Below, in pieces: positions 10,003 through 11,460 of a DNA stretch of 64,000 nt. The notes under the pieces are model-generated. The model did not search any database. It was not told the DNA's origin and saw only the letters and a program-made list of their open reading frames with translations. Made by a program: the position numbers and the translations under genes. Position 1 is the first letter of the stretch. Each line of letters begins with the position of its first letter. This DNA is from Escherichia phage vB_EcoM_ESCO32, in sequence record OM386658.1. One strand, written 5' to 3'.

Positions 10003-10076
10003 TGGTGCTCCCACAAGGACTCGAACCCTGATAAGTTGCTTACAAGGCAACCGTAATAGCCGTTATACGATAGGAG
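10003..10076 (-). tRNA. tRNA-Thr(TGT)
   Basis: Acceptor GCTCCTA/TGGGAGC, anticodon arm GTTGC-CTTGTAA-GCAAC, T-arm CAGGG-TTCGAGT-CCTTG, CCA. Confidence 0.6.
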
Positions 10077-10156
10077 CAAAATATTTGCTTGGTAGGATTT
10101 GATACCTACAATTCTAGAAAATTCTAGAGGTTTCTATTAACTCTACAAGCACTATT

Positions 10157-10241
10157 TGGCGATGGATCAAGGATTTGAACCTTGCTAGAACTTTCGTTCA
10201 CGGATTAACAGTCCGTCGCCCAACCACTAGGCCAATCCATC
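10157..10241 (-). tRNA. tRNA-Asn(GTT)-like with extra long variable arm (atypical)
   Basis: Anticodon arm ACGGA-CTGTTAA-TCCGT (Asn-like), then GAAC-GAAA-GTTC extra hairpin, T-arm CAAGG-TTCAAAT-CCTTG, acceptor GATGGAT/ATCCATC, CCA. Confidence 0.4.
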
Positions 10242-10248
10242 TTTAATT

Positions 10249-10335
10249 TGGTGCAGGTAGTTGGACTCGAACCAACGAAGCCCCGAAGGGCAGGAGATTT
10301 ACAGTCTCCAGCAATTGCCGCTATGCGATACCTAC
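10249..10335 (-). tRNA. tRNA-Tyr(GTA), type II
   Basis: Acceptor GTAGGTA/TACCTGC, anticodon arm GGAGA-CTGTAAA-TCTCC, long variable arm, T-arm GTTGG-TTCGAGT-CCAAC, CCA. Confidence 0.6.
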
Positions 10336-10340
10336 GTGTT

Positions 10341-10416
10341 TGGTACATCGTGAAGGATTCGAACCTTCGACCTTGGAGTTAAAAGCCCCTTGCTCTACCA
10401 ACTAAGCTAACGATGT
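10341..10416 (-). tRNA. tRNA-Lys(TTT)
   Basis: Acceptor ACATCGT/ACGATGT, D-arm GCTT-AGTTGGTA-GAGC, anticodon loop CTTTTAA, T-arm GAAGG-TTCGAAT-CCTTC, CCA. Confidence 0.65.
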
Positions 10417-11004: not shown

Positions 11005-11086
11005 TGGCCGGGGTGACAGGATTCGAACCTGCATACTCCAATTACTCGGTTAACGCCTGATTAGAAGTCAGGTGAGATACACCCCG
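11005..11086 (-). tRNA. tRNA-Arg(TCT)-like element with atypical architecture
   Basis: Acceptor CGGGGTG/CACCCCG, anticodon arm CCTGA-CTTCTAA-TCAGG, T-arm GCAGG-TTCGAAT-CCTGT, CCA; but only 5 nt where the D-arm should be and a 23-nt segment between anticodon and T arms. Confidence 0.35.
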
Positions 11087-11384: not shown

Positions 11385-11460
11385 TGGTGGTTCCCCAGGG
11401 TTACAATCCCTGCCCTCGACACTTATGAGGTGTGCGCTCTCGTCAGTGAGCTATGGAACC
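11385..11460 (-). tRNA. tRNA (CAT anticodon; Met or Ile2) with non-canonical T-loop
   Basis: Acceptor GGTTCCA/GGGAACC, D-arm GCTC-ACTGACGA-GAGC, anticodon loop CTCATAA, T-arm CAGGG-ATTGTAA-CCCTG (no TTC), CCA. Confidence 0.45.

Follow-up and report, generated by a model that had tools for sequence, protein, structure and literature searches.

The 85-nt element at positions 10157-10241 of the window, by which we mean the whole 64,000-nt stretch of Escherichia phage vB_EcoM_ESCO32 DNA (OM386658.1) that was analysed, is confirmed as a real phage tRNA-Asn gene, and its sequence fits best with a class I tRNA carrying an inserted mini-hairpin. ARAGORN calls a tRNA-Asn (gtt) there on the minus strand, with exactly the ends and the 85-nt length given in the earlier, sequence-only reading of this DNA, and the Rfam tRNA model RF00005 scores it at 56.5 bits as a cloverleaf tRNA, the gathering score being 29. 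The anticodon GUU, also put forward in that reading, is returned alike by the ARAGORN call, the Rfam alignment and the fold. The gene and its parts are as follows.

10157-10241, minus strand: tRNA-Asn(GUU), complete, 85 nt (ARAGORN, Rfam RF00005 and fold)
10157-10159, minus strand: encoded CCA, with the discriminator G73 at 10160 (tRNA-Asn(GUU) sequence)
10168-10184, minus strand: T-arm CAAGG-UUCAAAU-CCUUG (Infernal, fold and alignment)
10185-10199, minus strand: variable region of 15 nt, made up of the hairpin GAAC-GAAA-GUUC (10188-10199) and then the unpaired UAG (10185-10187)
10200-10216, minus strand: anticodon arm ACGGA-CUGUUAA-UCCGU, with the anticodon GUU at 10207-10209
10218-10232, minus strand: D-arm GCCU-AGUGGUU-GGGC, with a 4-bp stem and a 7-nt loop

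Read along the minus strand, the tRNA begins GAUGGAU UG GCCU AGUGGUU GGGC G ACGGA CUGUUAA UCCGU, continues through GAACGAAAGUUCUAG, and ends CAAGG UUCAAAU CCUUG AUCCAUC G CCA. The same 85-nt sequence recurs with 100% identity in dozens of phi92-like phages and in phi92 itself, where its annotation is tRNA-Asn (gt008). Over the surrounding 3-kb tRNA region, the identity to phi92-like myoviruses of E. coli (genus Justusliebigvirus) is 98-99%. The anticodon arm had been judged close to that of bacterial tRNA-Asn, and over nucleotides 28-43 the match to E. coli tRNA-Asn is in fact exact, including the stretch U36-A-A-U39-C40 followed by C41. With E. coli tRNA-Asn(GUU) (asnT/U/V/W), the phage tRNA has in common the GUU anticodon, G73, positions 28-43, A37 and U33-G34-U35. 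In contrast, the E. coli tRNA is 76 nt long, with a 5-nt variable loop (AUGUC) and a U1-A72 pair, whereas the phage tRNA is 85 nt long, with a 15-nt hairpin region and a G1-C72 pair; the acceptor, D and T stems of the two also differ.

Several independent observations indicate that the extra hairpin is real. Both the minimum free energy fold and the centroid fold give a cloverleaf with GAAC-GAAA-GUUC as a fifth hairpin (-29.5 kcal/mol, z = -2.6). Infernal fits 11-12 extra bases between the anticodon arm and the T-arm, as an insertion in the variable region, and these bases therefore lie inside the tRNA. The covariance-model fold, which the sequence-only reading had named as decisive for its proposal, gives the anticodon GUU and keeps the extra hairpin within the tRNA. 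The suspicion voiced there of a manual-folding error is refuted by Infernal, ARAGORN and the minimum free energy fold, and the same three analyses rule out a hairpin lying outside the tRNA. When the 15-nt variable region was shuffled, only 19 of 5000 shuffles folded as well as the native sequence.

The comparison with orthologues that had been recommended points the same way: the hairpin reported from this sequence, present in both folds, is conserved in homologues, and the tRNAs of related phages keep it through compensatory changes. Among phi92, phAPEC8, PVP-SE1 and T5-like phages the two strands of the stem read GAAC/GUUC, GUUC/GAAC, GAGU/ACUC or GUC/GAC, with the GAAA loop retained. When 12 diverged homologues were aligned with MAFFT, 97.9% of the cells of the variable helix are paired and three of its four pairs change on both sides, against only 31-46% paired in slid controls. 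This pattern resembles that of the four canonical helices; the D-stem, for example, is also 97.9% paired, with three covarying pairs, and all five helices are intact and covarying in this alignment, with 99% of cells paired. The first pair of the hairpin is an invariant G:C within the window-like group of the alignment.

According to the textbook rule, long variable arms occur only in Leu, Ser, Tyr and Sec tRNAs, and it had been correctly stated for this sequence that they are normally limited to Leu, Ser and Tyr. The bacterial class II body has a 3-bp D-stem and an enlarged D-loop. A class II arm is recognized as a variable region of at least 10 nt that forms a stem-loop (PMC7609411), and the arm of the phage tRNA-Asn, with 15 nt, 4 bp and a GAAA loop, is one by that definition. 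The rest of the molecule does not have the class II form: its D-stem has 4 bp, its D-loop has 7 nt, and its anticodon is GUU. In view of this D-stem and D-loop, we therefore describe it as class I with a mini-hairpin. It is like the class II tRNAs (Leu, Ser, Tyr and Sec) in having a variable region of more than 10 nt folded as a stem-loop, and differs from them in its class I-family anticodon, its class I D-arm and a variable stem that starts at position 44. The term type-II-like, applied to it earlier, is thus apt for the variable arm and misleading for the body, in which the D-arm is that of class I and the closest match in the window is tRNA-Gln. When AACGAAAGUU is removed, an ordinary 5-nt variable loop remains. 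Given the class I-like D-arm, a small insertion is the best structural description among the three options that had been offered, the others being altered synthetase recognition and an error of folding.

As to where such a tRNA came from, of the tRNAs in the window it comes closest to tRNA-Gln, a class I tRNA, at 57 of 71 aligned positions; one of the least similar is tRNA-Tyr. Descent by an anticodon shift from the adjacent tRNA-Tyr, or from tRNA-Ser(GCU), was considered and rejected on the class I D-arm and the closeness to tRNA-Gln. No consistent donor isotype emerged from a nearest-neighbour survey of 1,384 tRNAs among the matches listed. In the wider family of long-arm tRNA(GUU), again among the matches listed, enlarged D-loops and D-arms resembling those of Tyr or Ser tRNAs are frequent. 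The long arm may therefore be of more than one origin, and the architecture may have arisen repeatedly.

Homologues with a long variable region occur in phAPEC8 (Phapecoctavirus, 86 nt), in the Salmonella phage PVP-SE1 (Seunavirus, 85 nt), in Klebsiella phages and, as an 83-nt long-arm tRNA-Asn in about 280 records, in T5-like phages (Lindwurm, SP15, Bas32). T5 proper has a 78-nt class I tRNA-Asn (L345:5953-6030) with two non-standard pairs in its anticodon stem (GCAUC/GUUGA), and about 280 other T5-like phages have the 83-nt long-arm type at the same position of the cluster, which indicates an exchange of two different Asn genes inside a single group of phages. For a broader survey, IMG/VR viral contigs were scanned for an anticodon arm of Asn type with a T-arm a long way 3' of it, which gave at least 120 stretches, and the identical scan was applied to one genome per prokaryotic species; the counts hold among the matches listed. 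From viral and cellular loci together, ARAGORN recognized at least 114 distinct tRNA(GUU) sequences of 79-96 nt among the matches listed. A variable-region hairpin of at least 3 bp is present in 92 of these 114 listed sequences, whereas shuffled sequences averaged 36 and never exceeded 47. The loop belongs to the GNRA type in 59 of the 114, among them 46 with GAAA.

A second scan of viral contigs, neutral to the length of the variable loop, returned long forms in 20 of 120 of the matches listed. Where clusters are defined as loci with at least five tRNA genes, the long-arm tRNA(GUU) accounts for 18 of 51 matches listed inside clusters and 1 of 55 outside them (Fisher p = 4e-6). These distribution frequencies are rough, as they refer to one anticodon-stem pattern among the matches listed. 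Cellular long-arm tRNA(GUU) genes sit in arrays that hold 11-36 tRNA genes per 8 kb, for example in Mycobacterium, Micromonospora/Verrucosispora and a Thermoguttaceae MAG; outside such arrays, the cellular pattern matches listed are mostly standard 75-nt tRNA-Asn genes or contain no tRNA. In the densest of these cellular arrays (L125, L128, L135, L138, L166, L190 and L201), with 18-36 tRNA genes in 8 kb, the arms are 16-18 nt long, and are GNRA-capped in Micromonospora/Verrucosispora. Overall, the long-arm tRNA(GUU) is found in phages and in arrays of many phyla, and several phage contigs hold long-arm and standard tRNA(GUU) genes together. No long-arm tRNA-Asn was found in E. coli genomes or prophages among 5,426 complete genomes. 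Long arms are also present in other class I isotypes of viral clusters, namely Thr(UGU) (5/40), Cys (4/27), Trp (4/37), Lys(UUU) (2/49) and Met (10/74), all among the matches listed. Hairpin-forming long variable regions were also seen in Gln and Asp tRNAs at the viral loci L005-L124.

The identity elements, as read from the sequence, point to Asn and not to Ser. The E. coli AsnRS identity set consists of G34, U35, U36 and G73 (PMC9976931). It is complete in the phage tRNA-Asn, with GUU in the loop CUGUUAA and G73 at 10160, and of the 114 long-arm relatives among the matches listed, 112 likewise have G73. Class IIb synthetases approach the tRNA from the side of the variable loop; if they do so here, AsnRS must accommodate the arm. 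The commonest 1:72 pair among the listed long-arm relatives is U1-A72 (71/114), a hallmark of bacterial tRNA-Asn and a determinant of transamidation (PMC9976931). The window tRNA has G1-C72 instead; because E. coli has AsnRS, U1-A72 is not required in this host.

A long extra arm on a tRNA with a class I anticodon is also known from the nematode nev-tRNAs. Allo-tRNAs similarly combine a long extra arm with the anticodon of a short-arm tRNA (PMC5389517). Both differ from the phage tRNA-Asn in having a Leu- or Ser-like body and in being charged by a synthetase that ignores the anticodon, which leads to altered decoding. The phage tRNA has a class I body and identity elements that match its anticodon, and for that reason no recoding would be expected from it.

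The gene is one of 15 or 16 tRNA genes that form a dense cluster on the minus strand. Promoter-like TTGACA and extended -10 elements, which are consensus matches only, lie upstream on the same strand. The immediate neighbours of tRNA-Asn are the following.

10003-10077, minus strand: tRNA-Thr(UGU), 79 nt downstream of tRNA-Asn (ARAGORN and Rfam alignment)
10249-10335, minus strand: tRNA-Tyr(GUA), 7 nt upstream of tRNA-Asn (ARAGORN)
10341-10416, minus strand: tRNA-Lys(UUU), 5 nt upstream of tRNA-Tyr (ARAGORN and Rfam alignment)

The PARIS nuclease AriB cuts the Lys(UUU) and Thr(UGU) tRNAs of E. coli and its tRNA-Asn(GUU) between nucleotides 40 and 41 (PMC12409363). It does so in the context U36-A-A-U39-C40-N41, in which U39 is critical, and the substitution U39A abolishes cleavage of tRNA-Lys (PMC12409363). 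The Lys, Thr and Asn tRNAs of T5 jointly restore infection under PARIS (PMC12409363; PMC11464382). A second AriB monomer has been modelled on the tRNA D-loop, and the variable region goes unmentioned in the same paper (PMC12409363). E. coli tRNA-Tyr is reported to be the target of the retron-Eco7 PtuAB, and Septu is reported to cut tRNA-Tyr in its variable loop. The window's Lys(UUU)-Tyr(GUA)-Asn(GUU)-Thr(UGU) block thus brings together the isoacceptors of three AriB targets, among them the host tRNA-Asn(GUU), and tRNA-Tyr, the target of PtuAB/Septu.

Two of the three AriB-related phage tRNAs are altered at the cut site. The phage tRNA-Lys(UUU) reads U36-A-A-C39-U40-C41, against U, C and A at positions 39-41 in E. 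coli, and tRNA-Thr(UGU) reads U36-A-A-G39, against U39 in E. coli. The phage tRNA-Asn shows no such substitution: its positions 36-43 are those of the host, with U39-C40-C41, and its extra arm starts three nucleotides 3' of the AriB cut. The phage tRNA-Lys(UUU) also has an A27-A43 mismatch. Beyond the window, U39 is retained in the long-arm tRNA-Asn of phi92-like, phAPEC8-like and T5-like phages, and position 39 is changed in both class I tRNA-Asn genes of enterobacterial phages that were examined, those of T5 and the Kuttervirus SFP10. The tRNA-Asn of T5 has G39 U40 U41. That of the Salmonella phage SFP10 (L350:596-671) is of class I and nearly a duplicate of the host's, sharing the D-arm and the variable loop with the E. 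coli gene, and its 31-39 pair is flipped from A-U to U-A (A39), a change of the same kind as the AriB-resistance change in tRNA-Lys. PVP-SE1 combines a long arm and G39 in one tRNA-Asn.

With the T5 tRNA-Asn(GUU), the gene described here shares the isoacceptor, the setting in a tRNA cluster of an E. coli phage, and a host counterpart that is an AriB substrate (PMC12409363). The two differ in that the T5 tRNA is a 78-nt class I molecule altered at positions 39-41, whereas the window tRNA has the host cut site and the extra arm. We had considered whether the anti-PARIS tRNA-Asn of T5 might itself be of the long-arm type; this was rejected on the 78-nt class I gene of T5 proper. Phage Bas34 (SelmaRatti) was likewise considered as a natural test of the long arm, as its own tRNA-Asn is insufficient against PARIS (PMC12409363). 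Over its first ~70 nt, the annotated gene (L349:12599-12681) is of the long-arm type; on the 3' side, however, the acceptor strand is shorter and contains mismatches, three pairs being lost, and ARAGORN makes no call. This damage may explain the failure of the Bas34 tRNA-Asn against PARIS, and since the copy is damaged its failure to protect is uninformative about the arm.

In the explanation that we favour, the phage tRNA-Asn would be a functional tRNA that reads AAC and AAU and is transcribed with its neighbours in the minus-strand cluster. Host AsnRS would charge it through GUU and G73, and selection would maintain the compact 4-bp, GAAA-capped hairpin inserted in the class I variable loop. 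Its most likely role would be to sustain Asn decoding in infection, chiefly when a defence nuclease depletes the host tRNA-Asn(GUU). The phage Lys and Thr tRNAs would avoid the AriB motif through their substitutions at position 39, and the Asn tRNA, with the anticodon arm of the host, would rely instead on the extra arm as a steric anti-determinant; as it keeps the host sequence at the AriB site, the hairpin may be a steric shield. For the whole of this proposal, a functional AsnRS-charged tRNA-Asn whose selected hairpin helps to sustain decoding by shielding it from AriB-type cleavage, we would put the chances at slightly below even. We infer AsnRS charging, the anti-defence role and, above all, shielding by the hairpin, this last from few lineages.

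Several considerations bear on how far this proposal may be taken. The contrast between class I genes with a changed position 39 and long-arm genes with U39 covers very few lineages, and PVP-SE1 has both features. Long arms occur in many phyla and on other class I isotypes, and an explanation specific to PARIS is therefore too narrow. By analogy with the tRNA-Tyr variable loop reported to be cut by Septu, a long arm could even be a liability, that is, a nuclease target itself. In the open-access literature we found no experiments on a long-arm tRNA-Asn; the PARIS work used T5, with its class I tRNA-Asn.

The rival to be taken most seriously is that the gene is an ordinary codon-supply tRNA-Asn whose hairpin is a tolerated insertion with no role of its own, kept paired solely since 10 inserted nucleotides without pairing would interfere with folding. 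We consider this quite possible, though we lean against it. The window has 37% GC and uses 48 Asn codons per 1000, ACA and AAA being frequent too; in such an AT-rich phage, codon supply alone is sufficient to account for the presence of the gene. Moreover, the AsnRS identity elements are the anticodon and G73, which leaves room for change in the variable region, and the anticodon arm is unchanged from the host. Codon supply does not explain the hairpin itself, which persists with compensatory changes in at least three phage families although the tRNA bodies are only ~75% identical. Nor would a merely tolerated insertion be expected in more than 100 distinct sequences, concentrated in clusters among the matches listed and not found in 5,426 complete E. 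coli genomes, and the contigs that carry both long and standard tRNA(GUU) genes suggest that the two are not equivalent. The extra arm might alternatively be a handle, with no part in shielding from nucleases, for a modification or processing enzyme, for a protective protein or for a GNRA tertiary contact. GNRA loops, which are often recognition or docking elements, are over-represented in the long arms among the matches listed, most of them being GAAA, and the invariant G:C pair at the base of the hairpin in the window-like group would suit such a contact. We find this improbable: a candidate partner was not identified, GNRA loops are the most stable caps for stems of 3-4 bp, and the arm of tRNA-Ser(GCU) in the window is GAAA-capped as well.

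Two further readings would question the gene as a plain tRNA-Asn. In the first of these, SerRS would charge the tRNA through its long arm and G73, giving it a dual or altered identity in which AAC and AAU are partly read as Ser, much like other tRNAs that carry a class I anticodon on a long-arm body and are recognized by their synthetase whatever the anticodon. The SerRS determinant in the E. coli acceptor stem is G2:C71. The window tRNA has A2:U71 in its place, and among the listed long-arm relatives the 2:71 pair varies, with G-C in only 40 of 114, so that this determinant is not conserved; U1-A72 is the commonest first pair in the same set. A long variable arm together with G73 is a known recognition signal for SerRS (PMC7609411), and both are present in the window tRNA-Asn, whose arm matches that of the window tRNA-Ser(GCU) in size (15 nt, 4 bp and GAAA); how the arm is oriented is not readable from sequence. 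With a class I D-arm, the geometry of the arm should differ from that in tRNA-Ser. Taking A2:U71, the unconserved 2:71 pair and the class I D-arm together, and considering also that the full AsnRS set is present and that misreading Asn as Ser throughout the proteome would be costly, we regard charging by SerRS as very unlikely. The earlier suggestion that the extra arm could alter synthetase recognition finds no support in a tRNA with a complete AsnRS set, a near-invariant G73 and a variable 2:71 pair. A decaying pseudogene, or an artefact of gene finding, seems to us scarcely credible. Aberrant tRNA-like genes do occur in the same cluster (11005-11086 and 11385-11460), and Bas34 has a degenerate long-arm Asn copy, but the five helices of the tRNA-Asn are intact, covarying and 99% paired, it reaches 56.5 bits in Rfam, it has both CCA and G73, and the 85-nt sequence is unchanged in dozens of phi92-like phages.

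If the shielding proposal for tRNA-Asn could be extended, extra mini-hairpins on class I phage tRNAs would be a general and previously undescribed escape from tRNA-targeting immunity, in which docking of the nuclease is blocked sterically. We think this unlikely, although it deserves consideration. Should the general reading hold, examples would include the variable-arm hairpin of this tRNA and of more than 100 other tRNA(GUU) genes, the similar arms that some Thr, Lys, Cys and Trp tRNAs of phages carry, and the D-loop hairpin of the PVP-SE1 tRNA-Lys. Such an escape would keep the anticodon arm needed by the synthetase and the ribosome and would require no point mutation. Escapes known so far consist of point substitutions within the anticodon stem-loop, and an escape based on architecture, if true, would be a new principle.

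The existence of the gene is already known, as it is in public records and is routinely annotated as tRNA-Asn. In open-access text we came across no account of a phage tRNA-Asn with a structured long variable arm, nor of the covariation of the arm, its frequency in clusters or the contrast with escape by point mutation. A conserved, covarying extra arm on tRNA-Asn is a structural exception to the textbook rule for Leu, Ser, Tyr and Sec, and it is carried by roughly a third of the in-cluster phage tRNA(GUU) genes among the matches listed. It bears on how phage tRNAs evade tRNA-cleaving defences such as PARIS, PrrC and PtuAB, and is relevant to the annotation of tRNA genes, the prediction of synthetase identity and the design of nuclease-resistant or orthogonal tRNAs.

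Other unusual tRNAs were noted in the course of this analysis, two of them in the window.

11005-11086, minus strand: tRNA-like gene with the anticodon UCU (Arg), Rfam 38.6 bits, no ARAGORN call
11385-11460, minus strand: tRNA-Met(CAU) by ARAGORN, below threshold in Rfam

The tRNA-like gene at 11005-11086 has a 7-bp acceptor stem, G73, CCA and a normal T-arm, with the D-arm replaced by a 7-nt linker, and its long variable region forms the GUAA-capped hairpin CCGA-GUAA-UUGG. It is identical in phi92 (L001:1692-1773, unannotated) and in two IMG/VR contigs, and a 76% version is present in L342. The tRNA-Met(CAU) at 11385-11460 has an aberrant T-loop, GGGAUUGUAACCC, which is without TTC; its phi92 counterpart is annotated as a 'hypothetical tRNA'. 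In PVP-SE1, the 86-nt tRNA-Lys(UUU) (L003:2348-2433) has a normal variable loop and carries a GCAA-capped hairpin, GAC-GCAA-GUC, in its D-loop; its host counterpart is a nuclease target, and ARAGORN miscalls its anticodon.
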